Numbered from the stretch's first letter, positions 4,047 to 64,000 are shown. The stretch: 64,000 nt of DNA from Coleofasciculus chthonoplastes F2-STO-03 (GCA_040222015.1 JAVJWO010000108.1:1-64000); one strand, 5' to 3'. Made by a program: numbers and translations. Notes: generated by a model from the sequence alone, not told the origin.

Positions 4047-4288
4047 GGCGGTTCAAACCGCAGCTACACAAACTAAACCCGCCTGCGCGGGTTTCACAAA
4101 TTCCATTCGCCAGGGTTTGTTTGAGGTTCTTAATGAGTGTACTAAGCTGTTATGCTGCTGAGTATGGGAATTATTATCTGGTTTCAGACGCGATCGCATT
4201 CCCGGCGCTAATTTTAATCCCTCATAGGAATTCACGGAAATTCCAACATTTCAATAAAATAATTGTAGGGGCACGGCATTGCCGTGCC

Positions 4289-5178
4289 CTTTCAATTCCT
4301 GATAGGGATTCAGGGGAATTTAGACTTGCGATCGCGACGCCCGATCGCGCCATACCTGCTTGTTTCAATCCCTGATAGGGATTCAGGGGAATTTAGACTT
4401 CAAGGCTGAGTCACAGCGCCGGAAGAAGGAAGTTTCAATCCCTGATAGGGATTCAGGGGAATTTAGACATCCGAATCAGGCAACGATCCAAAAAGAGATC
4501 AAGGTTTCAATCCCTGATAGGGATTCAGGGGAATTTAGACAATTCTTGTTTCTCGGCAGGTGTGAGACTGTCTGTTTCAATCCCTGATAGGGATTCAGGG
4601 GAATTTAGACCTTAGTGATATCAGCGATCGCACCTTTAGGCTAGTTTCAATCCCTGATAGGGATTCAGGGGAATTTAGACCTAAATCAAAAACTATTTGC
4701 TATGTAGCCATGATGTTTCAATCCCTGATAGGGATTCAGGGGAATTTAGACCACACGAGATCATAAGGACAAAGCCTATAAAAGTGTTTCAATCCCTGAT
4801 AGGGATTCAGGGGAATTTAGACAATATCTAACAGAGATCTTATATCTTTCTCCATCCGTTTCAATCCCTGATAGGGATTCAGGGGAATTTAGACCTCAAC
4901 GACAATCTTTTAAGTACAGCTCAATTAGTTTCAATCCCTGATAGGGATTCAGGGGAATTTAGACTGTTCTTTAAGCCATTCAGAAAATTTTATTCCAAGT
5001 TTCAATCCCTGATAGGGATTCAGGGGAATTTAGACCTATTTATTATTAACGGAAGATGCTTAAATGTTGTTTCAATCCCTGATAGGGATTCAGGGGAATT
5101 TAGACCAAATTGGGAGGAACACGGCAAACGCCAAAATCATCGTTTCAATCCCTGATAGGGATTCAGGGGAATTTAGAC
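4289..5178 (-). CRISPR. CRISPR array: 13 repeats of 37 bp (GTCTAAATTCCCCTGAATCCCTATCAGGGATTGAAAC), 12 spacers of 33-36 bp; I-D-like repeat; no adjacent cas genes
   Basis: Identical repeats with unique spacers; degenerate trailer repeat at 4289; the ATTGAAAC 3' end gives minus orientation; subtype inferred from repeat style. Confidence 0.97.
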
Positions 5179-8202: not shown

Positions 8203-8436
8203 ATGGTAACTATACCTAAAATCTTAGCCTATCTGATTAGTTTAGGACTTATATTCGGAGTTGCTGTTAATCCGGCTACGGCTAAACTATCAGAACATCC
8301 GTCCCAGAAAACGAGTCAATTTAGCAAAATTGAGCAACCGTTACTCCTGAAAGTGAGTGTTACTTTAGGGGGAGTTGTATTAATTGGTGCAGAACTTTGG
8401 TGGTTTTTATTGAGCAAACATCAATCCAATATGTAG
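8203..8436 (+). CDS. Small membrane protein resembling the N-terminal part of cupredoxin-domain proteins that follow pacS; possibly truncated
   Basis: LGGVVLIGAELWWFLLSK motif; ORF ends in a palindromic repeat (stop supplied by GTAGAGACG). Confidence 0.5.
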   Translation: MVTIPKILAYLISLGLIFGVAVNPATAKLSEHPSQKTSQFSKIEQPLLLKVSVTLGGVVLIGAELWWFLLSKHQSNM

Positions 8437-33883: not shown

Positions 33884-34059
33884 GGACTCGATTTGGCAGG
33901 CGATATTCCTCTAGTTCTAACACATAGTCCACAGCCAATCTATGATAAAGGGCGGGTTGGGTTGATAAGTTATCGGTAGATACCAAAATTAAGCGGCTAA
34001 ACCCGCCCCGACAATTTATTTGGGTTCGCGAACTGGGATTACTAAGCTGATACCTTAAA

Positions 34060-48311: not shown

Positions 48312-48348
48312 GTTTCAGTCCCCTTGCGGGGATTTAGTTGGTGGAAAC
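48312..48348 (-). CRISPR. Solitary type III-like repeat GTTTCCACCAACTAAATCCCCGCAAGGGGACTGAAAC with a leader at about 48349-48640
   Basis: Shares the CCCC-GCAA-GGGG hairpin and ends with the 63947 repeat; the adjacent 50 nt resemble the 63890-63946 leader. Confidence 0.8.
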
Positions 48349-48643: not shown

Positions 48644-49264
48644 ATGTACTCTACTAGAGTAATTTCGATGTCTGGGGATATTGTTTTTAGCTTTAATGAC
48701 ATAAAAACCACTCAGGCGGCGGCTTTCCTGATCAAGCTTCATGGTCAGCCTTCGATGAGTTATTTGGGGCTGCTCAAAATGCTCTACATCAGTGATCGCC
48801 GATCTCTACAATATAGTGGCTATCCTATTACAGGTGATAGTTTTGTTTCGATGAAGTATGGACCCGTGTTGACCCGTATTTATGACTATGTGAAGCCAAA
48901 TGGCGGTTTTACCAGTTCTGAATATTGGTCAGAATACATCGCCACAGTTCCCGCCCCCCATGAGCCTAATAAAAAAGTATTTGTGACTTTAATTGCTGAC
49001 CCCGGTGATGATGAGCTTTCTCTGGCTGAAGAAGAAATTATGGAGGCAGTTTATCAAGAATTTGGTCATCTCAATGCTTTTGATGTGGCTGAGTGGACTC
49101 ACTCACTTCCAGAATGGATAAATCCACAGGAAAAAGGTCAAAAAGTTGTTGATATTAAAGTTGTGGATCTACTTCAGTATCTAAAAAAAACTGATGACGA
49201 AATTCAGCGTATAAAAGAAATTGCTGATCGAGAACGCTATTTAGATGGGGTTCTAAATGGCTGA
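48644..49264 (+). CDS. Panacea (PanA/SocA, DUF4065) domain antitoxin (alternative start 48668)
   Basis: LLKMLYISDR, PITGD, MKYGPV and WTHSLPEW motifs. Confidence 0.85.
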   Translation: MYSTRVISMSGDIVFSFNDIKTTQAAAFLIKLHGQPSMSYLGLLKMLYISDRRSLQYSGYPITGDSFVSMKYGPVLTRIYDYVKPNGGFTSSEYWSEYIATVPAPHEPNKKVFVTLIADPGDDELSLAEEEIMEAVYQEFGHLNAFDVAEWTHSLPEWINPQEKGQKVVDIKVVDLLQYLKKTDDEIQRIKEIADRERYLDGVLNG

Positions 49265-49658
49265 TTTATCAATTAATTTGGGTGATATTTTCCTTTTGGA
49301 CACGGGGGGTCAAAAAAATCATTGGTATATTGCGATCGCTCCCCTTTCTTCCGATGAATTTTTGTTTGTAAATATATCAACTTGGTATGAAGGCAGTAGT
49401 GATAATGATGGAACTTGTATCTTAAAACCAGCGGCAAGAATGCCTGGATTTATTAATCGAAAATCATTTCTTGCCTATAAATTTGCGAGGTCTTACACCG
49501 CCGAGCAACTGGAAAAACTCATCGTGCCAAATTCTGACCTTCCCTATGATACGCTTGAGCCTCAGATTTTAAGACGTGTTCAAAGAGAGAGTCTAAATGC
49601 TAGAAACTTAAAGAAAAAGTATCTTAATGCTCTAAGGGCTTATCTGGGAGTTTCTTAA
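49257..49658 (+). CDS. Putative toxin partner (possible PemK/MazF-like fold)
   Basis: Overlaps the antitoxin stop (ATGGCTGA); GDIFLL..H....FVNIST pattern. Confidence 0.55.
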   Translation: MADLSINLGDIFLLDTGGQKNHWYIAIAPLSSDEFLFVNISTWYEGSSDNDGTCILKPAARMPGFINRKSFLAYKFARSYTAEQLEKLIVPNSDLPYDTLEPQILRRVQRESLNARNLKKKYLNALRAYLGVS

Positions 49659-49843
49659 GTTACTTTACTTCACCGACGTGCGCCCAATTTCAACAGCAGG
49701 CGCCCATTTTAACAGTAAAATCTATTCCACAATTTTAGCTGTGTCAGTCCAGTAGGGTGGGTTAGGTAGATATTTCATGAGGAAAATCACCCTTTAATGT
49801 AATATTTCCGCCGTAACCCACCAACAATTAGACGGGTAGAACT

Positions 49844-49963
49844 GTAAGACGTCCCCTTGCGGGGAAGAGGTGAAAGACGACTCAACAGTTGAGTCAACTT
49901 CTAGAGGCGTGTTTCCATCCCCTTGCGGGGTAAGTTTATCAAGCGATTACCGCTTGCGGAAAC
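49844..49963 (-). ncRNA. Degenerate CRISPR mini-array (repeat-spacer-repeat) producing a crRNA-like RNA
   Basis: Two repeats that keep CCCCGCAAGGGG flank a 32-nt spacer (49879-49910); the upstream repeat ends in ATGGAAAC. Confidence 0.8.
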
Positions 49964-49984: not shown

Positions 49985-50013
49985 AACATAACCGTACTGG
50001 GTCGAAAAGTCAA
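49985..50013 (-). promoter_or_regulatory. Sigma70-type promoter of the mini-array
   Basis: TTGACT-17 bp-TATGTT on the minus strand, about 20 nt upstream of the first repeat. Confidence 0.7.
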
Positions 50014-50046: not shown

Positions 50047-50079
50047 GGGGAGAGTGGTAGCATGTCAGCGACTCTCCCC
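50047..50079 (-). terminator. Hairpin downstream of ORF 50120-50521 (possible terminator or stabiliser)
   Basis: GGGGAGAGT-N15-ACTCTCCCC; no strong U-tract. Confidence 0.4.
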
Positions 50080-50119: not shown

Positions 50120-50521
50120 CTAGTCGTTTTTATCAGACTCCGGCTTAACTTGCTCCACATCGAAATTGTTGACCAACAAGCCAAGGCGGTTACTCATATC
50201 CAAGTTCTGCCAAAGTTGGACACCGTTATTAGCGCCAACGATGAACGCTGAGACAATTGCCGCCAGTATCTGAAATTTCCGCAAATGCTTCCAAGAACAA
50301 AAGGATTTTTTAGGTTGGAAATTTGCGTGGTTTTGCGTCTGCTTCGAGTGTTTCAGGTTTTCTTGGAACTTATCCGTCAAACCCAGCGGGTGTAGATTAT
50401 TGTCCGGTACGTCATCTTGGAGCGTAAAGTCATGACCATCCGGTGATGGGTGTGCAGATAAATCTAATTCGGCTAAACCTGCTACAGGGTCAGCCACCAA
50501 TGACTTCGAGTCTTTTTGCAT
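50120..50521 (-). CDS. Orphan protein with an acidic disordered N-terminus and one predicted TM helix
   Basis: 133-aa ORF; AGGT RBS; hydrophobic FQILAAIVSAFIVGA preceded by basic residues. Confidence 0.6.
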   Translation of the reverse strand: MQKDSKSLVADPVAGLAELDLSAHPSPDGHDFTLQDDVPDNNLHPLGLTDKFQENLKHSKQTQNHANFQPKKSFCSWKHLRKFQILAAIVSAFIVGANNGVQLWQNLDMSNRLGLLVNNFDVEQVKPESDKND

Positions 50522-50708
50522 TGTTCGTTACCTATTGTTAAATACGCCAGCTAGAAGTTGCTTGCAACAGTTGAGTCGGTTTTGAGTGCTTATTCAGACA
50601 TCTTTCCTCCCGAATATGTATCAATTTTTACCACCTCATGGTTTTGACCATGAGCTTACCCTCTATCATAATCTCAGACCAATCTCAATGACCACCAACA
50701 AAGTTATT

Positions 50709-51326
50709 TCAACCAACGCATTTAACCTTTTTGAGACTTCCATCCTCCTTGAGAACCATAATCTCAACCTTAATCATTTGCCCTTCAGATAGCAATTTCG
50801 CCTTTTTTGGCTCTTTTTCGGTTAATTTAATCGTTTCCAGAATCGTATATGTTACCTTATTTCCCTTAACGCCTGTAACCGTGGCGTCCAATATTTGACC
50901 CACTTTAAAATCATGAGTGCTAACCACCTCAGCAATTTCAGCTTGACGCGCTGACTCGACAACAGGGGCGCTAATTTCGCCAACGGGTTCAGCGTTTTGG
51001 TAATAACGCATTAGCCGATAAGACCAGCCTAAAATATGTAGCATCACTGGGGGATTATCTTGATAGGCTTTTAGGTATTGATTACAAGCATTGTCAATAC
51101 TTTGGTAATAGTCAGACGTTCGCTTACTATGTCCAATTTGTCTGCCATTTCTGACCAAGGTTTTGAGATAATCAAACAACTTTTTTCCGTCTTGGTTGGC
51201 GTAATTGCGAAGATAGGCGATCGCTTTTCCTAGTTCATTGGCGTCTGTATCTGCTTTGACTAGAGTTTGTGCGATCGCGTGGGCAATTTTCCACTCATTT
51301 TCGGTTAATTCTTCTGTTATTACCAT
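50709..51326 (-). CDS. CRISPR III-D-associated protein: helical N-terminal domain plus S1/OB-like C-terminal domain
   Basis: Last gene of the cas operon; FKVGQILDATVTGVKG S1-like motif; start set to MVITEE. Confidence 0.65.
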   Translation of the reverse strand: MVITEELTENEWKIAHAIAQTLVKADTDANELGKAIAYLRNYANQDGKKLFDYLKTLVRNGRQIGHSKRTSDYYQSIDNACNQYLKAYQDNPPVMLHILGWSYRLMRYYQNAEPVGEISAPVVESARQAEIAEVVSTHDFKVGQILDATVTGVKGNKVTYTILETIKLTEKEPKKAKLLSEGQMIKVEIMVLKEDGSLKKVKCVG

Positions 51327-51390
51327 AGAGATTTTATCCTTGGTTCTTCCAGGTTGTAGAGACGTTGCATGCAACGTCTCTACAATTGTG

Positions 51391-52416
51391 CTAATACATT
51401 CCCTCCGGCGGTTCTCTCTCAGTAGGATATCCCAATACCTTGACTAATTCCTGCAATGGCTGGGATTGCACCAATTCTCGATGCGCCGCCTGAATCGCCT
51501 GTTGGATCAACTGTTGCAAGGGTTTTCCAGTAAGGGGTTGGGATTGAGTTTGATAGGATAAATAGCGATCGCGTAAATTATCGACAGGTTCTAAACTCCT
51601 TACCTCAACTGTCATTGTCCCCATCCCAATCGGTTTACCGCCACCCACTTTAAGTGCAATCGCATTCAGTTTATCTTGTCCGAGTACAATCAGTAGGGTT
51701 CCCAGTTCCCCTTTGGTTAAGTTTCGATAGGGTAATGATGTGGTAAATACAAAAGTTTTCGCCGCTTGTTGTACTGATATTCCCTGGTGTTGCCCTTTAT
51801 CTACAGCCCGAATTGTGTGATAATAAAACTTGCGCCCAGCGACCTTTCCCTGGTTAAAATAACCTGGGTATTCATCAGGACGAGGACGATAGAGAGATGG
51901 CATAAATCCGGGACGAAATTCAGTTGATTCACACTCAGCATCCCTAAACTGAATTAACCCTTGCCAATTCAGCGCCCCAAATACCCGACAAGCGGGACAA
52001 AGTTGGGTTTTATCACGACATTCCTGATAGCCTGGGGGGATTTGATTCGGTTTTGCTTTCGTTTTACACAAACAGCTACGGGTAATCGCTTCATAGGTGG
52101 AACGTACCACACCTTTAAGCGAACTACCGGGAATCATTAACTGTCCCTGGCTTCCCTGAATCATCGTTTTAATCAAGGGAATCGACTTTTGTCCCACATC
52201 CGTTCCCAGGGCGACAACTCCCGTAGAAACGTGTAATCCGGTTTGAACCGTTAATTTTAACTGTAACGTTCCATGGACGCAATCGCGATAATATTGATCG
52301 TGTCCTTTAGGATGTTGTAATTGCGGCTTTTCTTTCGGTAAAGGGATGAGATGATAGGGTTTTGGGGCAGTAATTTGGGATGGTTGAGGGCGGGGAAGGG
52401 GTTTATCATAACTCAT
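51391..52416 (-). CDS. Type III-D RAMP (Cas7 group, Csm5-like)
   Basis: IPGSSLKGVVRS, CPACRVFG, GRKFYYH, GGGKPIGMG. Confidence 0.88.
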   Translation of the reverse strand: MSYDKPLPRPQPSQITAPKPYHLIPLPKEKPQLQHPKGHDQYYRDCVHGTLQLKLTVQTGLHVSTGVVALGTDVGQKSIPLIKTMIQGSQGQLMIPGSSLKGVVRSTYEAITRSCLCKTKAKPNQIPPGYQECRDKTQLCPACRVFGALNWQGLIQFRDAECESTEFRPGFMPSLYRPRPDEYPGYFNQGKVAGRKFYYHTIRAVDKGQHQGISVQQAAKTFVFTTSLPYRNLTKGELGTLLIVLGQDKLNAIALKVGGGKPIGMGTMTVEVRSLEPVDNLRDRYLSYQTQSQPLTGKPLQQLIQQAIQAAHRELVQSQPLQELVKVLGYPTEREPPEGMY

Positions 52417-52922
52417 TTTGGCATATCCACAGTTAAGGCAACAAAATGCACCATTGCAGTAGGTTTAGCGATAAAATAACGCTGGGCTAGTTTCGGCTGA
52501 TTGGGGGAAGTATTTCTCACATCCAGACTTTGAGGATAAATTAGCGATCGCGGGAATCTGGTTTCATTGGTAAGATACCCATAAGCTGGGCGTTGTTCAG
52601 TTTTCCAATAGGATTTATTCTCAGATTTTCTGGGATATTCTGTATCATCAATAATCGATTTAAAGCCCAGAACCTCACCCGTATTCGATAACACAAGTAC
52701 GCTATAACCCTCATTTTGCCATTTCCAGCGCAATTCGCGATCGCAATTAAACATCTGTCCTTCAGGAGAGGGAAAATTATCCGGTAATTTGTCCACAATT
52801 CCACTCACTTGATGACTCCAACGCAGAAAATAATAACTCGGCGCTGTAGCTTGCTGTTGCACTAATTCTCTTAACTCTGTTTCAGTGAGTAACTCTTGAT
52901 AAACACCAACAAAAGGACTCAT
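52413..52922 (-). CDS. csx19: Csx19-like type III-D subunit
   Basis: Size and position between RAMP genes; EGQMFN..RELRW. Confidence 0.65.
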   Translation of the reverse strand: MSPFVGVYQELLTETELRELVQQQATAPSYYFLRWSHQVSGIVDKLPDNFPSPEGQMFNCDRELRWKWQNEGYSVLVLSNTGEVLGFKSIIDDTEYPRKSENKSYWKTEQRPAYGYLTNETRFPRSLIYPQSLDVRNTSPNQPKLAQRYFIAKPTAMVHFVALTVDMPK

Positions 52923-54034: not shown

Positions 54035-54655
54035 TTAAGCCGCAACTAAGGTATCTAGTTGGGCTTCACAATGTTGAAAAATCGAGTTAACAACTGCAAA
54101 GAGTTGATCAAGATTTTCAATAATGTATGGAGTCGTATGTTTGGTAAATACATTGCCTTCTAGTTTACCAAACTGCCAGACTTGCCCATTAGAAACAATT
54201 CCAAATACAGTAATCTGAGGATATTGATTCAGGCGTTGAGCCGCCACCATTTCGGCGGCACACTGACCCCACCCTTCCTTAAACTTATCTTGTTTTGCCT
54301 CAACCAGTAAGAAATAGGGTTGGTCAAAAACCACCTTTCCCAGGGGAGAGCGTTTCGCTAAAATATACTCTGGAAAACCCGAAAGGGTCTCATCGTAATT
54401 TAGGGATTCGTGACTCCATAAAATAAACTTGCTTGAATAACATTTCCAGACTTGTTTCAGTACCGGATAAATGAGATTCTCACAAATAGCAAACTCTGAA
54501 TTATTCACCACCCCTTCCCGCATCACCATCTGGAGATCTTCGCGGAAATAGTCCGGAATATCAAAGGGAGATTCAACAATAAAATTCCCTTCTGTATAAC
54601 TAATCTGAAACTCCTGGATAACATCCGCAATACTTGTGTACTTGCTAAATGACAT
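54035..54655 (-). CDS. Cyanobacterial PD-(D/E)XK-like hypothetical protein inserted in the cas operon
   Basis: LVEAK..GWGQCAAEMVAA and GIVSNGQVWQF; start set to MSFSKY. Confidence 0.7.
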   Translation of the reverse strand: MSFSKYTSIADVIQEFQISYTEGNFIVESPFDIPDYFREDLQMVMREGVVNNSEFAICENLIYPVLKQVWKCYSSKFILWSHESLNYDETLSGFPEYILAKRSPLGKVVFDQPYFLLVEAKQDKFKEGWGQCAAEMVAAQRLNQYPQITVFGIVSNGQVWQFGKLEGNVFTKHTTPYIIENLDQLFAVVNSIFQHCEAQLDTLVAA

Positions 54656-54720
54656 AATCACCTCACAACATTTCGTTCGTAGTTGCCCGTAGGGTGCGTT
54701 AGCGGAGCGTAACGCACCGT

Positions 54721-55154
54721 TGAACAAGGGCAGGTTTTGTTGTTCAATTATCGGTAACCCGCCAGATTGAATCTCTAAACCCACCCCTACGATAGGGTAT
54801 CGCATTTCCTGTGAATAAGGGCGGGTTTTGTTGTTCAATTATCGATAACCAGCCAAAATCAATCCCTAAACCCGCCCCTACGATAGGGTATCTGCTTTCC
54901 TGCGAATAAGGGCGGGTTTTGTTGCTCAGGTGTTGGTGAAAAGCGAGATTAAGTCCCTAAACCCGCCCCTACGATAGGGTATCTGCTTTCCTGTGAACAA
55001 GGGCGGGTTTTGTTGTTCATTTATCGGTAACCCGCCAGATTGAATCTCTAAACCCACCCCTACGATAGGGTATCGCATTTCCTGTGAACAAGGGCGGGTT
55101 TTGTTGTTCATTTATTGGTAACCCGCCAAGTTAAATCCCTAAACCCGCCCCTAC
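54721..55154. repeat. Five tandem REP-like palindromic units with a 91-bp period
   Basis: Units start at 54721, 54812, 54903, 54994 and 55085, each GGGCGGGTTT...AAACCCGCCCCTAC. Confidence 0.9.
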
Positions 55155-55171
55155 AATAAATTGATACATCA

Positions 55172-56047
55172 TCACCTCGTATTCACCTCAGCATTCTGAT
55201 TTTTCCGATTTTCCAGATAGCCAATCAAAGATTGTACCCACTGGTCTTTATACCCTTTACCATCCTCATAAGCTGAACCCTCATTATTAACCATTTTCTT
55301 AAGATAATTCAGCAACTTATCTGCATCAATATTATCCGGTTTATTTTTATCTCTGGCGTCAAACCAATCCATCCGCTCAACCTCCAATTTAACCACACCC
55401 AAACCCCGCGAACGCCCTCCCCCCAGTGGAATTTGTTCCGTCTCAAACTGATGTAACCCAATCATTAATAATCCCAACTCCCAATCCTCAGCATTTTCCA
55501 CCACCGCCTTAAACGCAAAAGGAGTTCCCGCTGGAACCACTTGGAAATCATACAATTTCCCATCAGCCGCCGTTTCCGTATCTCTATCAATCGCCACCCC
55601 ATCCCGTTCTTGATATTGACCAAACCAATACTCTGAGATAACCATCAAATCTCGAACTTGAAACTTACTCGCCAGCCAAGGTGAACCAAATAGATGAGAA
55701 ATTAAATCAGTCTGATTTAAAATAGCCTCAGTTAGCGCCGTATCCGTAGGATATCGCTCTTTCAATTGCTTCATTTCCTGAGCCGTAATCGCCCACTCCT
55801 CCTCTACCGCCGGATTAGCCACCAAAGTCCGCTCCCCGCCCAGGATACCACGGAGGAAGCTTTCTAAGCGCGATCGCAACGCCCCCTTAAAACTAGCGCC
55901 CGGTATCAACGGTTTACCCAACGCATCTTTAATCACCGGTAAATCCGAACCAATTGGTTCCGTGGAACGCCCTGCGCTAATTCTTAGTGCCGTTACCGTC
56001 ATCAACTTCCCGCTAATTTCCAAACGATTCTTAAAACAATCAAACAT
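55172..56047 (-). CDS. csx7: Type III-D RAMP (Cas7 group, Csx7/Csm3-like)
   Basis: IPGASFKGALRS, RDGVAIDRDT, GGGRSRGLG. Confidence 0.85.
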   Translation of the reverse strand: MFDCFKNRLEISGKLMTVTALRISAGRSTEPIGSDLPVIKDALGKPLIPGASFKGALRSRLESFLRGILGGERTLVANPAVEEEWAITAQEMKQLKERYPTDTALTEAILNQTDLISHLFGSPWLASKFQVRDLMVISEYWFGQYQERDGVAIDRDTETAADGKLYDFQVVPAGTPFAFKAVVENAEDWELGLLMIGLHQFETEQIPLGGGRSRGLGVVKLEVERMDWFDARDKNKPDNIDADKLLNYLKKMVNNEGSAYEDGKGYKDQWVQSLIGYLENRKNQNAEVNTR

Positions 56048-56253: not shown

Positions 56254-56823
56254 CTAACTCAGACTCAACCAACTAAACACATCTTGAACCGATAACCGCA
56301 ACTCTCCCAAAGAACTAAGCACAGACAAACTATCTTGATTTTGCTTAATTTCCGGCTGTTTTCCTGGTTTAAAAATAATTATTGAACGCTCCTGCGGATC
56401 AATAAACCAACCCAGTGCTGTGCCATGATTCAGACAAAACAGAATATTATCAATCACACGGGTTGAACTTTGTTCCGGTGACAAGATTTCAATCGTCCAG
56501 TCTGGGGCAATTTCAAAAGTATTCTCAATTTCCCCATTCCCATCAACTGGAATACGTTCCCAGGAAAAGACAGTTATATCTGGCACCAAAGAACGCCCAC
56601 CAAAGGTACAGCGCAACTCAGTAAACGCACGCGCTATTTTCTTAGGGATAGCGACTTGATTGATAGCCGGAGCTAAAAACGTTTGGATAGCGCTGTGTTT
56701 TCCTTTAGGCATTGGTTTTTGGTAGATTTGACCATCGATATATTCACTTGCGGGTTCTGTTTCTGGCAATTGCAGGAAATCAGCTAGAGAAATTTGGGTA
56801 GAAGACGGAAGCGGTATAATCAT
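56254..56823 (-). CDS. Uma2 family protein inserted in the cas operon
   Basis: PASEYIDG, VPDI, APDWTIEILSP. Confidence 0.88.
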   Translation of the reverse strand: MIIPLPSSTQISLADFLQLPETEPASEYIDGQIYQKPMPKGKHSAIQTFLAPAINQVAIPKKIARAFTELRCTFGGRSLVPDITVFSWERIPVDGNGEIENTFEIAPDWTIEILSPEQSSTRVIDNILFCLNHGTALGWFIDPQERSIIIFKPGKQPEIKQNQDSLSVLSSLGELRLSVQDVFSWLSLS

Positions 56824-58030: not shown

Positions 58031-58549
58031 TTAGTAGTTATTTTTACTAGCTTTACTCTCTCCTACCAGAGCTGTATGTTCTCTTGCCAAATATCCTAGA
58101 TACAGGCGAGTTAGTTTTAGATGAATATTTTTGATAAATTGGGCTTTATTTTTAGTATCCGTCAGATACTGTTCTAATGGATTTTCTTTGGGGATTGGTC
58201 GTCTCACTCTATCCAGTATTTCTTGTGCATCCTGCTTTAAACTGTCAATCTGTTCAACAACTTCAGTCGCAAAGAGCTTTTTATCTTTAGAGACTTTCCA
58301 AATTCGACTCGCTCCACTACGACCCACTTGATAACGAATATAGTTTTTTATAGCTTCTATTGAAGCATTAGCTTCAGTAGCAGCAGCAAGAACATTTTTG
58401 AAAGGAGATTTTGAATCTTCACTGGCAATTGAAAATTTTTTGGATATGGCTTTAACTTTGAGGATAACATCATCCATTTGTCTACTAATTTCCACCTCAG
58501 TTCTTAACGTCAGTTGTTCTTGGAGCAATGGATCAAGTAATTTCTCCAT
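58031..58549 (-). CDS. Type III small subunit (Cas11/Csm2-like)
   Basis: Helical protein after csx10; NYIRYQVGR and LYLGYLAR. Confidence 0.75.
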   Translation of the reverse strand: MEKLLDPLLQEQLTLRTEVEISRQMDDVILKVKAISKKFSIASEDSKSPFKNVLAAATEANASIEAIKNYIRYQVGRSGASRIWKVSKDKKLFATEVVEQIDSLKQDAQEILDRVRRPIPKENPLEQYLTDTKNKAQFIKNIHLKLTRLYLGYLAREHTALVGESKASKNNY

Positions 58550-58551
58550 GT

Positions 58552-59820
58552 CTAAACTGCCTCCTCACGCAAAACTAAATGAAATTCATTGCAAATTTGC
58601 ACTTGACCAAAGCCCTCGCAAGTGCGCTCGCCTACTCCCTTCACCTCCAAATAGTTTAACCTCTCCATCCAGAGATTGGGTTGAATCGTACTGAAAAGAT
58701 AAACAGCTCCCTTATTAGTAATCAACTCTACATCTTTCATCAATCCCCATGCAGAATTCCAACCAGATAGGTAGTCATAGCTGCTGTAGGCAGCGTGTAG
58801 TTGTAGGGATGAATCAGTAACACCTGTAAAATACTGTAGCATTTCTGGTGAAATTACCGTGGTACGTCGCCAGTTTTCATTCAGAATCGTATCTGACTGT
58901 AAATCAATAGTAAAATACGTGCGATTTTGCAGTAAATCTTGTTGTGGCTGACCAAAAATTTGCCAATCCTGCCAACGCTTATGTAGTTTGTCCTGAAACA
59001 TCTTGATTCGCTCCTCGACAGATGGCTTAACGGCTGTGGTATCTACAGGTGACTTAGCCGTGATTTTTACTTTTCCTAATCCCCGTGAAGTTGAACCACC
59101 CAAGCGGAAATCTTGCTGATAATTAGTGATAAAGCGTTGTAAAGATTCGGCTAGTTCATCGGCAACTAGGATCGCTCCTGTATAAATCACAGGCTTTTCT
59201 CTCTTACCTGCAATTTTAGACTCGTTTAAAACTTCAATACTATAGAGTACTCCTTCTTCTGTAGTGGCTCGGCGTCGATTGATGCCAGCTCGTGTTAGTA
59301 GGCGAGTATTGGCAGAATGGCTGTGGTACTTGTTACCAATTTTACTGTAAAATTCAGTAAAAGTATCCACTCTATCACCATCTTGAGGACAAGTCGGGTC
59401 ATATAAATGACCATAGCCATCAGCACAAAAGCGATCGATTAAGGTGTCAAAAACACCATTATGATCAGAATCGTTAGGTTTTGATTTAAAACCGGGCTGA
59501 GTTTTGGAACTTAGAGCCGTAGCAGGTACAACCCAAACATCTGACTGAACTCTAGTTTGTTTTTGTCCCTCAATGGTTGCTGGATACGCATTGTGGAAAA
59601 TTGCTGGATTGTCGCCTATAAATAAAGCTTGAAAGTCACCTCCATTGTCTGCCAAATTAGCTGACTGATGTCCTGACTGTCGTAGAATCTGAGCAGCCAT
59701 CGCCCCCCGAATTACTGAACCGGGAATATAGTCTCCGGCTTCACTCACTGAACCCCCTGGTTTTTTCCGCCCAATGGCTAAAGGAGATAACGCTTTAATT
59801 TCCAGTTGAATGCGCTTCAT
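58552..59820 (-). CDS. csx10: Type III-D RAMP Csx10 (Cas5 group)
   Basis: YIPGSVIRGA, GGSTSRGLG and GERTCEGFG (two G-loops). Confidence 0.88.
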   Translation of the reverse strand: MKRIQLEIKALSPLAIGRKKPGGSVSEAGDYIPGSVIRGAMAAQILRQSGHQSANLADNGGDFQALFIGDNPAIFHNAYPATIEGQKQTRVQSDVWVVPATALSSKTQPGFKSKPNDSDHNGVFDTLIDRFCADGYGHLYDPTCPQDGDRVDTFTEFYSKIGNKYHSHSANTRLLTRAGINRRRATTEEGVLYSIEVLNESKIAGKREKPVIYTGAILVADELAESLQRFITNYQQDFRLGGSTSRGLGKVKITAKSPVDTTAVKPSVEERIKMFQDKLHKRWQDWQIFGQPQQDLLQNRTYFTIDLQSDTILNENWRRTTVISPEMLQYFTGVTDSSLQLHAAYSSYDYLSGWNSAWGLMKDVELITNKGAVYLFSTIQPNLWMERLNYLEVKGVGERTCEGFGQVQICNEFHLVLREEAV

Positions 59821-60547
59821 TTGCTCCTCCTTTGGCTAAATAATTCCACACTGACTCATCCACCTGAATTGAGGGAAGTTCCCACTTCAACCATCCTAAT
59901 CCTACTGATTTAGAACCCCCCAAAGCATTAATATGGTGTAACCCAGCTAAAATTAAGGCTTTGGTAGAAGCCGGACAATTAGGCTGAAGGTGAATGTCGC
60001 CAGTAAACTTAAGCTGAATATTAGCGGGTGAAGTTTCTAGGAAATAGAGTTTTTTCTCTTCAGCCGTATGACGACGACGATTAATCGTCACACCTGGGCG
60101 GAGAACTTCTGAGGGAAGATTATCGGGTTCTTCTTGGCAAATTAAGTCATCAAAAATGACTCGTGACGGTAAGGCGGGATTGCCAAAAATCTGACAAATT
60201 AAACAATGATATCGGTTATCTCCTGCTACTCGATAATCCTCGTCTCGTTGAAAACGCCTCGCCTCATTGTCGGGAAAATCTGCACGCTGGGGACACATAG
60301 TTTGAGGATTAGGGGCTTGACAAATTGCCCACCCTAACCCCCGTGCTAATTTCTCACATTCATGACGCAAACGCCCTTTAAGTTGAGACGCTGGAATTAG
60401 GAGTTTGTTGTCCGCAGTACGCACAATTGGCTTATCGGCGAGAGAACCGGAAGAACCTCCTGCACCCACGCATAAAGCAGTATCAATAACAGCCGTTAGG
60501 GAGATTGTTTCGACTGGATTTGATAATAAGTCTTGCAGATAAATCAT
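59795..60547 (-). CDS. Type III-D RAMP (Cas7/Csm3 group)
   Basis: IPASQLKGRLRH, CLICQIFG, GGSKSVGLG. Confidence 0.9.
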   Translation of the reverse strand: MIYLQDLLSNPVETISLTAVIDTALCVGAGGSSGSLADKPIVRTADNKLLIPASQLKGRLRHECEKLARGLGWAICQAPNPQTMCPQRADFPDNEARRFQRDEDYRVAGDNRYHCLICQIFGNPALPSRVIFDDLICQEEPDNLPSEVLRPGVTINRRRHTAEEKKLYFLETSPANIQLKFTGDIHLQPNCPASTKALILAGLHHINALGGSKSVGLGWLKWELPSIQVDESVWNYLAKGGANEAHSTGN

Positions 60548-62907
60548 ATTAATCGCGCCCCTGTCTGGCTAGGTTGTTCAGTGGTTTCAATAATAAAAGG
60601 ATAAAGTTCGACTAATTCCCGCCAGATAGTTTCATAGGTAGTCGTACCATCCTTTTCCGGTAACGACATCCAGGGTGATAAGTTACCACTATTAGTCTTG
60701 GCATCACACCAGGCTTTTTCAAAATACTCCTCCAACAATTTTTGGTTTTCCAGTTCCAAGCGAACGCGGAAATAGCGATAATTGAGGATAGCGGTGTGTT
60801 TACCTTGTTCGAGTAAACTGCGGATTTGATAAAGTTGCGATCGCGGAAATTCTGACTGCTTTAATTTCTCCCCTGTTTCAATCAATCCGCCGAGTTCGTG
60901 TAAGGTGTAGGGTGCGCCATAAAGTTTCAACTTGGGTTTGCCTTTTTCCTGCTTAGTTAAAGCCTCTTGGCGAAAGGCTTCAATATTGGAGGAAATCATC
61001 GTTACCGACTTCAGCGTGAGAAAGTCAACAGTTCCGCCGTGATAGTCATAGTCTTTTTTTAACTGCTTTGCCTTCTTCTTGGCTGATTTAAGTAATTGAC
61101 TTGTTAGATTTTCGGCATAATAAATTGGTGTTTGATAAGCCGTAATTAGAACCCCCGTTGACATACTCAGTTTACATTGTGAAGGTTTGACAGATATCTG
61201 CCCTTGGTATCGGTGACAGTCTTGAGAACGTGAGATTATTTCTGGATCAGTAATTCGATAGTCTTCTTTCCCTTGTATCTTTTCGCCTTCCAGAAGAATT
61301 CGCTCAAACTCCTCGCCAATAGTTTGAGCAATTGCCAGGGCTTTATCGGCTGGTACAATTAACATGACATCATCCCCACCAATTGTGAGGATTTCAAAAG
61401 GATGAATAATCGATCCATTCCGATGTTGATTGTCTCCAGTTAAACCGTTTAATTGATGAGGGTTAAGATGTCGTCCGAGGGCGTGGTAAACCGATTCCTC
61501 TGTGGCTGTAAAGATATCTCGGCTAAATCGGCGACAATCTTGGGGGGTTTTGAGTTCTTTCTGAATATAACCTCCTATGTTATTGCCATCAGCATAAATA
61601 TAGCCAACAAAACCATTTCCAGCATTGCCAATTTCGGTGAGCGATCGCGCTTCGCCAATTTTCTGTTTTGAGATGTCTTGATAATAGCGATCTCGATAGT
61701 GACTTTTTTCGATAAAACGCCTAAATTTAACCACCCAGCTTTCCAGATACCCTGAATTCCATAATGTTTTAACTTGACCAAATTGCCATTTCCAATCCGA
61801 ATTTTTTGTCCACCATTTCTGACTGCGACTCCCTTCCCCTTTCGTTCGTTGCCCAACAATACGCTTACGGGCTAAAGCATCAGAAAACCAAGGTTCATCC
61901 GGAAGACGACTCCCAGGGGCAATAGCTAGGCGATGTTCGACGTCATCCCGCAATAAATAAGGATGGGTTTCAAACATAGGCGGATAGCGACGGCTGGGGC
62001 GTTGGCTATCGGGTAAGTTATTACCGTTGCGTCGCTGCTGAAATAAAGCCGCCAGTTTCCCCGTTATTTCGTTAAAATTCTTGCGATTTTCAAATAAGTA
62101 TTTCCAGGGTTGACCGTTTTTAAGTTGACCAAAGTAGGCGCTTGTAATCGGATTTGTTTGCCGTTTATTATCCTGTAAATACCAGTCTAACCATTTGCTT
62201 TGTTCAATCGGATTGTCAAGTAATCCAAATCGCAGTTCCAGCAATCTGAAACTTTCTCCTACAGCACAAGAATTAGCGGTCAAGGTTTCTTCTGTATAGC
62301 GTTTTTCAATTAAATTGACCAAATCCGGGACAAAGGCTGTCGGGCAAAAGGCTAAAATGTTAGCCCCGGTTGAGTAAATCACTAACTCAGGAATCAGTGC
62401 GTCCCATAACGGGTGTAGTGTTTTATCTTTGTGTTGTAAGTCTCGCCTAACCCTTTGGCAATATTGTCTGGCTCGGTAACATTCGGGAAAGTCCTCTGGC
62501 AATTCTTCACATTTGAAAAAGGCAGGTAAATCTATTAAATTAATTCGATCCAGTAATGCTGATGCGCCCCGAATTTCGGGAAGTTTGGCTGATTCAAATA
62601 CATAGCCTTTAATCTTTGTTGCACCGCCGTAGACTAAACCGATTCGGGTGGTTTGCTCCCACAAATTGGCATAGTTATCCTGAAGATCAGTAATTTTATC
62701 GGGAAAATAGTCTTGGGAAATCTCTTGTAGTTGCCGCACCGTTTGTAGTAAGCACTTTAGTGCTTCTGTATCCGGAACATCTTTCCCTTGACGCAGCGCC
62801 TCTCGCATTTGCTGCAAGATACTCAAATCAAACTGCGGTTCACGCCCCTCGCCCCAAGCGAGACACCAGGCGATTCCAATGGTTAGGAGGGGTAGAGAAT
62901 GGGTCAT
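60544..62907 (-). CDS. cas10: Cas10, no apparent HD domain, intact GGDD cyclase motif
   Basis: YADGNNIG and IGGDDVML Palm2 motifs; short N-terminus before Palm1. Confidence 0.93.
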   Translation of the reverse strand: MTHSLPLLTIGIAWCLAWGEGREPQFDLSILQQMREALRQGKDVPDTEALKCLLQTVRQLQEISQDYFPDKITDLQDNYANLWEQTTRIGLVYGGATKIKGYVFESAKLPEIRGASALLDRINLIDLPAFFKCEELPEDFPECYRARQYCQRVRRDLQHKDKTLHPLWDALIPELVIYSTGANILAFCPTAFVPDLVNLIEKRYTEETLTANSCAVGESFRLLELRFGLLDNPIEQSKWLDWYLQDNKRQTNPITSAYFGQLKNGQPWKYLFENRKNFNEITGKLAALFQQRRNGNNLPDSQRPSRRYPPMFETHPYLLRDDVEHRLAIAPGSRLPDEPWFSDALARKRIVGQRTKGEGSRSQKWWTKNSDWKWQFGQVKTLWNSGYLESWVVKFRRFIEKSHYRDRYYQDISKQKIGEARSLTEIGNAGNGFVGYIYADGNNIGGYIQKELKTPQDCRRFSRDIFTATEESVYHALGRHLNPHQLNGLTGDNQHRNGSIIHPFEILTIGGDDVMLIVPADKALAIAQTIGEEFERILLEGEKIQGKEDYRITDPEIISRSQDCHRYQGQISVKPSQCKLSMSTGVLITAYQTPIYYAENLTSQLLKSAKKKAKQLKKDYDYHGGTVDFLTLKSVTMISSNIEAFRQEALTKQEKGKPKLKLYGAPYTLHELGGLIETGEKLKQSEFPRSQLYQIRSLLEQGKHTAILNYRYFRVRLELENQKLLEEYFEKAWCDAKTNSGNLSPWMSLPEKDGTTTYETIWRELVELYPFIIETTEQPSQTGARLI

Positions 62908-63209: not shown

Positions 63210-63548
63210 TTACCGAGACAGTGCGGCGGGTAATTCCACGGGAAATACTTCACCCACGGAGACATCGTGAGTGTGAGTCGCGACGACGACAACGCCTAAA
63301 CGGGGGTCATAACATCCTACCCAAGCGGCGGGATGACATTCGTGAACCAGGTAACTGTACAGCCAAATCGGACCTTTTCCTTCGATGACGATACCTTGGT
63401 TGAAGGGTATTCCTTCTGGTAGTTTGATTCCTTTAATATCTGGGGGGGAAATAATACCGTCTTCTGTGGCAATCTGGAAATGCAGGTGTTGATAGGGTAA
63501 ACCGGTTTGGGTTTGATGGGGAAGCAGTTGAAGTTGAATCGCGTTCAT
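63210..63548 (-). CDS. csx3: Ring nuclease Crn3/Csx3
   Basis: GIVIEGKGPIWLY..LVHECH, YDPRLG.VVV..H. Confidence 0.9.
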   Translation of the reverse strand: MNAIQLQLLPHQTQTGLPYQHLHFQIATEDGIISPPDIKGIKLPEGIPFNQGIVIEGKGPIWLYSYLVHECHPAAWVGCYDPRLGVVVVATHTHDVSVGEVFPVELPAALSR

Positions 63549-63946: not shown

Positions 63947-64000
63947 GTTTCCGCTAACTTACTCCCCGCAAGGGGATTGAAACTCAACTTCTTCTAGTGT
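63947..64000 (+). CRISPR. First repeat (GTTTCCGCTAACTTACTCCCCGCAAGGGGATTGAAAC) and partial first spacer of the type III array, cut by the window edge
   Basis: 37-bp repeat with hairpin and ATTGAAAC end beside the cas operon; only one copy is visible. Confidence 0.85.

Follow-up and report, generated by a model that had tools for sequence, protein, structure and literature searches.

The window analysed here, 64,000 nt of Coleofasciculus chthonoplastes F2-STO-03 (GCA_040222015.1 JAVJWO010000108.1:1-64000), contains a mini-array of two degenerate CRISPR repeats around one spacer-like sequence, hereafter called the guide, located beside a type III-D cas operon. The mini-array probably (about 65 %) encodes a regulatory guide resembling a CRISPR RNA (crRNA), similar to CreA or CreR, which would act through the type III effector, and the sequence comparisons suggest that a CRISPR complex directed at RNA has been co-opted to keep a neighbouring gene repressed without triggering its own alarm. 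The guide is partly complementary to a site at the start of this neighbouring (cargo) gene, and guide and target have changed together among related loci. All features of the module are on the minus strand, downstream of the type III-D operon.

The mini-array and its target in the window

The mini-array starts (49947) approximately 760 nt downstream of the stop codon of the last III-D gene (50709), on the same strand. Its parts, and the related repeats at the locus, are the following:

49911..49947, minus strand: upstream pseudo-repeat, 5' 17 nt decayed, hairpin and tag intact
49879..49910, minus strand: guide, the pseudo-spacer of the putative crRNA-like gene, 32 nt, ACGCCTCTAGAAGTTGACTCAACTGTTGAGTC
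49845..49878, minus strand: downstream pseudo-repeat, 5' part GTCTTTCACCTCTT and hairpin (49864..49853) kept
49985..50013, minus strand: promoter-like site TTGACT-17-TATGTT, 5' of the mini-array, a consensus match only
48312..48348, minus strand: single repeat of the same family, well preserved and located 1.5 kb downstream of the mini-array
63947..64000, plus strand: start of the true III-D array, 12 repeats GTTTCCGCTAACTTACTCCCCGCAAGGGGATTGAAAC, extending beyond the window end

Both the hairpin CCCCGCAAGGGG (49930..49919) and the 8-nt tag ATGGAAAC (49918..49911) are kept in the upstream pseudo-repeat, and the tag position of the downstream pseudo-repeat has decayed to ACGTCTTA. Among 17 distinct copies of the upstream pseudo-repeat, the conservation of the hairpin and tag is 0.8-1.0 and that of the 5' part 0.4-0.9; in 17 distinct copies of the downstream one, the 5' part and hairpin are kept and the tag is drifting (0.4-0.8). 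Judged by sequence, the parts kept in both pseudo-repeats are exactly those that one crRNA would need. The hairpin is the same as that of the true array, next to which cas6 (TIGR01877, E-value 2.8e-26) is located beyond the window end, and the repeats of the mini-array are therefore considered part of the neighbouring III-D system. Against Rfam, the repeats had CRISPR-DR matches only, all below threshold.

The guide begins with ACGCCTCTAG at its 5' end, which is conserved in relatives, and its 3' half forms a perfect palindrome of 8+8 nt, GACTCAAC-T-GTTGAGTC, centred on position 24. The first-pass annotation of this DNA, made from the sequence alone, had cautioned that the palindrome could instead fold or be a protein operator. 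This caveat is weak, because the guide hairpin (-6.2 kcal/mol) was not better than those of shuffled sequences, 51 of 200 of which folded as well, and the palindrome is imperfect in other genera.

No target was found in an ungapped scan allowing up to 9 mismatches; gaps were needed, and a gapped search located the target 630 nt upstream of the guide. The features at this site are:

50544..50577, minus strand: target, RNA complementary to 27 of the 32 guide nt, with two 1-nt bulges on the target side
50536..50543, minus strand: target 3' flank, ATTTAACA (listed also as AUUUAACA), a partial anti-tag
50120..50521, minus strand: ORF133, the cargo open reading frame (ORF) of 133 amino acids, a genus-restricted orphan
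50665..50694, minus strand: promoter-like site TGGTCA-18-TATGAT, a consensus match only, which would put the target in the 5' leader

The plus strand at 50544-50577 reads in the sense of the guide, and hence a minus-strand transcript of this region is complementary to it. Guide positions 1-5, 7-16, 20-23 and 25-32 match the target, position 6 (T) is opposite two target letters, positions 17-18 are mismatched and followed by one extra target letter, so that the pairing of position 19 depends on where the gap is placed, and position 24 is mismatched. This agrees with the non-matching positions given by the first-pass annotation (6, 17-19 and 24), as does its proposed pairing between the target 3' flank and the tag: the flank (AUUU) pairs with the tag at -2, -3 and -4 only, through UUU. 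The complementarity may extend 1-4 nt into the downstream repeat.

When the guide was aligned locally to both strands of the 64-kb window, its highest score outside its own site was 40. Shuffled guides (n = 300) scored 26.0 on average (standard deviation 2.2, maximum 34), none of them reaching 40, and the 11 spacers of the true array scored 26-34 against the same window. The match between guide and target thus exceeds chance.

The target ends 22 nt before the start codon of ORF133 and is followed on the minus strand by ORF133, an inverted repeat, a promoter-like site and the mini-array. The inverted repeat (50079..50047) was noted from reading the sequence only; a terminator scan gave 0 sites, and no unusual structure was found in the target region. 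Upstream of the target there is only a 3-codon ORF (ATG TCT GAA TAA) behind GGGAGG, at 50590-50601 on the minus strand. Metatranscriptome contigs of a relative with approximately 95 % identity span the target, ORF133 and the mini-array (4 runs from 4 studies) and provide weak evidence, being assembled sequences without strand, ends or small RNAs, with DNA carry-over possible. The contigs share an end near 49852, which is accounted for by the divergence of the relative's sequence and by a repeat that it has in high copy number, and the lack of contig cover at 49300-49669 is not evidence.

Guide, target and cargo in related loci

A DNA search of 52 genomes of the family found the whole 921-nt region in three genomes of the same genus (G019, G020 and G021). 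Outside the genus only the mini-array part was recognisable in DNA, in four genera (G038, G032, G011 and G051), the other matches being ordinary arrays that share the hairpin. An exact scan of 185,579 species genomes for the end of the hairpin, the tag and the start of the guide gave 27 loci, 23 of which are mini-arrays with hairpins on both sides and 4 of which are chance matches, as expected for such a short pattern. The mini-array loci are in genomes titled Microseira, Lyngbya, Caldora, Coleofasciculus, Coleofasciculaceae, Microcoleus and Phormidium. In 21 of the 23 loci the gene of 221 amino acids that ends the III-D operon, and further III-D genes, are found upstream on the same strand; the contigs of the other two end too soon. 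The first 10 nt of the guide hardly vary between genera, although the Cas proteins of these genera share only 55-75 % identity. Of 13 loci from a scan of metagenomes, 4 are ordinary arrays and 9 are mini-arrays belonging to the same families; the scan added only three new guide variants (L066, L069 and L075), and its loci were left out of the statistics below; a scan of viral contigs gave one match, by chance, without the hairpin. One locus labelled as a metagenome-assembled genome of Actinomycetota (L038) carries a cyanobacterial-type III-D operon, target, Gp49 toxin gene and mini-array, and is probably a binning error.

The window and 19 of the 23 loci have a sense-strand target, which lies 630-1600 nt upstream of the guide. 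Counting the window, it is present in 20 of the 22 assessable loci, two (L047 and L049) having less than 500 nt of upstream DNA. The two loci without a target (L039 and L060) have lost the toxin gene and kept only a helix-turn-helix (HTH) gene. Nine loci have two tandem targets, the distal one without pairing to guide nt 1-5.

The proximal target is followed by a Gp49/HigB-like toxin gene and then an HTH antitoxin gene in 14 loci (PF05973 confirmed in 8, E-values 1e-19 to 1e-21; the remaining 6 share the N-terminus and were assigned on that basis), by a YoeB toxin gene (PF06769, E-value 2.7e-31) and a Phd/YefM antitoxin gene in L040, by an orphan ORF in L044, and by ORF133 in the window and three loci of its genus. 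The cargo is thus a protein toxin in 15 loci, 9 of which were confirmed with Pfam (8 Gp49, 1 YoeB). The distance from the end of the target to the start codon of the cargo is 22-26 nt in 17 of 18 distinct pairs and holds across the four kinds of cargo; in L042 the first ATG is 12 nt away and the conserved start of the toxin 24 nt. ORF133 has six relatives, all from the same genus, its dN/dS (ratio of non-synonymous to synonymous substitution rates) in four genomes is 0.5-2.0 (about 1), indicating no purifying selection, and it had no Pfam or NCBIfam family and no usable Atlas match. By comparison with the related loci, in the genus of the window an orphan ORF has replaced the toxin gene.

Two further observations concern the toxin genes. 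In 10 of the 14 Gp49 loci (L035, L036, L037, L038, L043, L045, L048, L053, L057 and L059) a frame beginning at an upstream ATG (MYRLK... or similar) crosses the target sites and continues in phase into the toxin ORF, extending it to 159-170 amino acids from 119, with the target sites read as TESTLQA or TESTFQA; the upstream frame is out of frame in the L046 group and stopped in L042. In L040, L065, L066 and L074 the YoeB toxin gene follows the target and the Phd/YefM antitoxin gene follows the toxin. The usual gene order of this pair is the reverse, and the toxin-first order fits a rule that the toxin gene is directly after the target.

The imperfect inverted repeats around a cargo whose content swaps between lineages might suggest an invertible or mobile cassette. 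Such a cassette is hardly credible here, as it has no recombinase gene, the orientation of the cargo is identical in all 20 target-bearing loci, and one of the "repeats" lies exactly between two CRISPR repeat hairpins.

The 20 loci provided 18 distinct pairs of guide and proximal target. Position 18 is unpaired in 16 of these, position 24 in 13, positions 12 and 4 in 12 each, position 5 in 11 and position 15 in 11 (7 if G:U is counted as paired), followed by positions 9 and 10 (5 each), 30 (4) and 6 (3, all from the genus of the window); all other positions are unpaired in at most 3. When sorted by position modulo 6, beginning with phase 0, the 122 unpaired cells are distributed as 51, 7, 7, 19, 22 and 16, i.e. 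51 are on the sixth positions (6, 12, 18, 24, 30 and 36). The mismatch positions of orthologous pairs are thus not random. Counting each distinct unpaired state once leaves 20 of 52 on sixth positions (binomial p = 1.4e-4, with states that are not fully independent). The first-pass annotation had placed the mismatches on every sixth position, where the Cas7 backbone flips out the guide base; this holds for 12, 18 and 24, where unpaired bases are clustered, and fails for 4-5, 9-10 and 15, which are also often unpaired, and for 6, which is rarely so. At positions 18 and 24 the target base differs among lineages without the pair being restored, and position 24 is paired in L075, a metagenome relative of the window's type, as relaxed constraint predicts. 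Codon wobble was considered as the cause of an apparent period of three in the mismatches and rejected: only one frame is open through the targets, and in it positions 12, 15, 18 and 24 are the first bases of codons.

Guide nt 1-7 are disrupted by a mismatch, insertion or deletion in all 18 pairs, and tag positions -2 to -4 are paired with the target flank in all 18, the UUU being kept. Position -5 is also paired in 10 (3 Watson-Crick, 7 G:U) and position -1 in one. The mean number of unpaired positions per pair is 3.1 in guide nt 1-12, 2.7 in nt 13-24 and 1.0 in nt 25-36.

Pairing of RNA independent of Cas proteins, either by an antisense small RNA or as a stem within a read-through transcript (e.g. 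a site for RNase III), with the repeats a historical accident, is an unlikely explanation. Guide and target are on one strand, 0.6-1.6 kb apart, so that one transcript could hold both, and an imperfect duplex of 27-30 bp would be stable as naked RNA. The conserved tag and both hairpins would, however, be left unexplained, as would the six-base phase bias and the maintained complementarity between flank and tag, and in the window a promoter-like site and an inverted repeat lie between ORF133 and the mini-array.

Toxin-antitoxin operons are usually autoregulated at palindromic operators (PMC12737573), and the palindromic core GACTCAAC-N-GTTGAGTC might be such an operator, bound for example by an HTH antitoxin at the cargo promoter and in the mini-array; the perfect 8+8 palindrome in the window's guide and the tandem duplication of targets in nine loci are in line with this. 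It is nevertheless highly improbable. The palindrome is perfect only in the genus of the window, and there in the guide and not in the target, the arms match at 6 of 8 positions in other genera, the similarity reaches beyond the palindrome to guide nt 1-16, and in the window's genus the locus has no antitoxin gene.

Taken over all pairs, guides fit their own targets better than those of other guides: the mean score was 39.2 for own targets, compared with 31.5 ± 1.4 for pairs re-assorted at random, and none of 10,000 re-assortments was as good. This co-variation is driven by four diverged families (the window's type, L056, L044 and the L045 group), in which blocks of sequence, including a 3-nt insertion, have changed on both the guide and the target side.

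The co-variation also bears on the possibility that the mini-array is debris of an ordinary array, that is, an old self-targeting spacer which gained mismatches to escape autoimmunity and has no present function. Both repeats are degenerate, a solitary repeat lies 1.5 kb away where relatives have a two-repeat array, ORF133 is not under purifying selection, and in a survey from 2023 the mini-arrays of type III were taken for degraded repeats, though 16 % of 309 III-D loci have one (10.1101/2023.03.03.530964). Debris would not be expected to have a nearly invariant guide start across genera, a patterned rather than random decay of the repeats, a guide that co-varies with its target, a fixed spacing from target to start codon, or a target that is lost together with the toxin gene. 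This explanation is therefore distinctly unlikely.

The type III-D operon and other elements of the window

The operon reads, on the minus strand, Csx3/Crn3, Cas10, Csx7, Csx10, a protein of 172 amino acids, a CARF protein, an inserted Uma2 gene, and then Csx7, a protein of 267 amino acids, Cas7, a protein of 169 amino acids, a Cas7-like protein and a protein of 221 amino acids ending at 50709. The presence of Cas10 with its cyclase motif, Csx10 (Cas5-like) and several Csx7/Cas7 proteins identifies it as type III-D; the Csx7 assignment is based on TIGR02581 (E-value 4.6e-78). The genes are:

63210-63548, minus strand: Csx3/Crn3
60544-62907, minus strand: Cas10 (TIGR02577, E-value 2.3e-42), GGDD at residue 510
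59795-60547, minus strand: Csx7
58552-59820, minus strand: Csx10 (TIGR02674, E-value 9e-135)
58031-58549, minus strand: protein of 172 amino acids
56832..58019, minus strand: CARF protein of 395 amino acids with a RelE-like C-terminal domain, Cami1-like fold predicted
56254-56823, minus strand: Uma2-family putative endonuclease (PF05685, E-value 6.4e-36)
55172-56047, minus strand: Csx7
54035-54838, minus strand: protein of 267 amino acids
53045-54004, minus strand: Cas7/Csx7-like
52413-52922, minus strand: protein of 169 amino acids
51391-52416, minus strand: Cas7-like
50709..51374, minus strand: protein of 221 amino acids without a family, the last conserved III-D operon gene, which in 21 of 23 related loci is found shortly before the target

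The CARF protein was modelled with AlphaFold2 from a 10-sequence alignment (mean predicted local distance difference test score 81.6). The best Foldseek matches of the model were Cami1 structures (8phb and 8phj, E-value 1.7e-15) over about 396 columns, i.e. the full length, and its C-terminal 95 or so residues matched YafQ, RelE and YoeB with template modelling scores, normalised by target, of 0.66-0.76. The C-terminal 105 residues had no sequence match in the PDB or Pfam and were resolved by the fold search only. At the level of the predicted fold the protein is Cami1-like, with an N-terminal CARF and a C-terminal RelE-fold domain, which bears out the first-pass annotation's description of a Cami1-like effector; from the Cami1-like fold, binding of cyclic tetra-adenylate (cA4) and ribosome-dependent cleavage of mRNA are putative functions. 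Since the GGDD motif of Cas10 is intact, and the Cami1-like CARF-RelE protein and Csx3 are present, a self-target at this locus must stay silent. The Uma2-family gene between the CARF and csx7 genes is present in some relatives and missing from others.

Several other elements were observed in the window. A gene similar to the SocA/Panacea antitoxin (48644-49264; PF13274, E-value 1.5e-23) is on the strand opposite to the mini-array, overlapped by a second ORF of 133 amino acids (49257-49658), and both are between the mini-array and the solitary repeat (48348..48312); the segment looks like an insertion into a former array, as G020 and G021 have a two-repeat array there. A second CRISPR array (4274-5178) has 13 repeats GTTTCAATCCCTGATAGGGATTCAGGGGAATTTAGAC, which end in ATTGAAAC when read on the minus strand; it has no adjoining cas genes in the window, its neighbours being hypA/hypB, an agmatinase-like gene and a copper ATPase gene. 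Five tandem units of 91 bp (54718-55162), with GGGCGGGTT...AACCCGCCCC elements, are located at and upstream of the 5' end of the ORF of 267 amino acids, with related elements at 33940, 5487, 52973 and 56154. A dispersed palindromic element, GTAGAGACGCGCCATGGCGCGTCTCTAC, has with its variants 10 copies in the 64 kb (e.g. at 8425, 16352, 25327, 38950 and 51348), one copy of this type being just after the start of the ORF of 221 amino acids.

Proposed mode of action and comparison with known systems

In the proposed mechanism, the mini-array (49947..49845) is the gene for one crRNA-like RNA. Cas6 would cut at both pseudo-repeat hairpins to release an RNA consisting of the 8-nt tag AUGGAAAC and the guide, which would be loaded into the III-D effector encoded just upstream. 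The loaded complex would bind the sense transcript of the cargo at 50577..50544, next to the ribosome-binding region, and lower the expression of the cargo either by occluding that region or by cutting the leader, so that repression of the target gene would depend on the effector. Firm binding would be provided by the well-paired 3' two-thirds of the guide, in which the other unpaired bases are mostly at positions flipped out by the backbone (12, 18 and 24). The disrupted nt 1-7, together with the short self-like anti-tag at -2 to -4, would keep Cas10 off, and the complex may also fail to cut at its first site. In this scheme, as the first-pass annotation supposed, the RNA would be bound or cleaved with no second messenger being made. 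Expression of the toxin would in this way be tied to a working III-D effector, either as an addiction or as an alarm against anti-CRISPRs.

Published work on related complexes is compatible with several of these steps. In the structure of a III-D2 complex, guide bases 6, 12 and 18 are flipped out, base -1 is flipped out by the Cas5 thumb, and U(-2) to C(-5) of a self target pair with A(-2) to G(-5) of the tag (PMC13294483). The base flipping by Cas7 and the anti-tag pairing at -2 to -5 on which the first-pass annotation relied are thus both stated for III-D2. RNA cleavage by III-D2 is independent of the anti-tag, the only cut being between positions 5 and 6 (PMC13294483). In type III-A the region that activates Cas10 is at crRNA +1 to +7 (PMC9704408), and in SCOPE a 3' seed is essential for binding and cleavage of the target (PMC8376896).

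Several points weigh against the regulatory explanation. Processing, loading, repression and the silence of Cas10 are what we infer from sequence comparison. A simple rule of every sixth base does not account for the lack of pairing at positions 4-5, 9-10 and 15. We know of no published structure of the multi-subunit form of III-D, and the pattern at position 15 may reflect an irregular subunit of the III-D complex. A bulge on the guide or target side is present in 17 of the 18 pairs (all but L056), and the tolerance of a Cas7 filament for bulges is uncertain. As the pairs are related by descent, the cell counts and the binomial value overstate their independence. The guide hardly varies within its commonest family, where other targets fit it better than its own, which agrees with maintained mismatches rather than maximal pairing. 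In the genus of the window the regulated item is uncertain, given the dN/dS of 0.5-2.0 of ORF133 and its lack of relatives beyond the genus, and operons of toxins such as those in the other loci are usually autoregulated by their own HTH antitoxin. Finally, regulatory mini-arrays acting on cas or cargo genes, the latter often toxin-antitoxin genes, have been described for types I, II and V-A, and for type III the available text of Shmakov et al. (2023) reports no positional conservation and no targets and regards the mini-arrays, present in 16 % of 309 III-D loci, as probably degraded repeats (10.1101/2023.03.03.530964). In the part of their supplementary files that was available, no match for III-D or the genus names was found.

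The closest parallels are among the mini-arrays of type I-D (and I-B, I-E and I-F1), in which two repeat-like sequences likewise flank a spacer that has partial complementarity to a site upstream of cargo, with the mini-array's position conserved and a cargo, enriched in toxin-antitoxin genes, that is swapped between relatives (10.1101/2023.03.03.530964). Those mini-arrays bind promoter DNA through Cascade, whereas the repeats and operon here are of the RNA-reading type III-D, the sense transcript carries the target, 22-26 nt ahead of the start codon, and the 3' part of the guide is paired, its tag-proximal part disrupted and an anti-tag kept. In CreTA/CreA of types I-B and I-F, a degenerate mini-CRISPR guide likewise has its own effector silence an adjacent toxin, which is freed when the effector is lost (PMC12737573, 10.64898/2026.06.02.729485). 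CreT, however, is a small RNA repressed at its promoter, whereas the cargo here is mostly a protein toxin of the RelE superfamily (15 loci) or, in the window, an orphan ORF of 133 amino acids, and control would be post-transcriptional. CrePA also keeps a protein toxin off with a crRNA-like guide and a Cas effector, and has been described for a DNA-binding effector acting on transcription, with no type III case mentioned in the available text (10.1101/2024.01.05.574328, PMC12737573). CreR of types I and V-A is similarly a crRNA-like regulatory RNA from a degenerate mini-array beside a cas operon, but is directed to the cas promoter (PMC12737573); here the target is after the last cas gene and before the cargo gene. 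Both CreTA and CreR involve a DNA-binding effector and a double-stranded promoter with a protospacer adjacent motif, whereas the operon here is of type III-D and it is the sense RNA that is complementary to the guide. A 2025 review, in its available parts, gives CreTA, CreR and CrePA for types I and V-A only (PMC12737573). Full-text literature searches, which did not cover most subscription journals, found no crRNA-like regulator of type III.

The known role of an anti-tag is protection of the array's antisense transcripts, in which it is complete; here an anti-tag of 3-5 bp is found on an unrelated mRNA, beside an imperfect protospacer. Discrimination of self from non-self in type III by pairing of tag and anti-tag was reportedly described by Marraffini and Sontheimer in 2010. 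In that discrimination, pairing of the flank at -2 to -5 silences Cas10 but lets the RNA be bound and cleaved (PMC13294483), and the pairing here would act alike.

Taken together, the locus might be the first equivalent in type III of the toxin modules repressed by CRISPR, one in which two locks hold Cas10, loss of the effector frees a toxin of the RelE superfamily, and the unpaired positions 12, 18 and 24 are the footprint of Cas7. This combined reading is held tentatively, the balance leaning slightly against it. If it is true, RNA-targeting type III complexes also serve in gene control, and type III loci are linked to toxin-based safeguarding. The pairs would then provide a comparative read-out of the guide positions that are unchecked by the III-D backbone, and a natural rule for binding RNA without Cas10 signalling, namely pairing of the 3' part, disruption of nt 1-7 and addition of a short anti-tag, which would be useful for type III-based knock-down and diagnostic tools.

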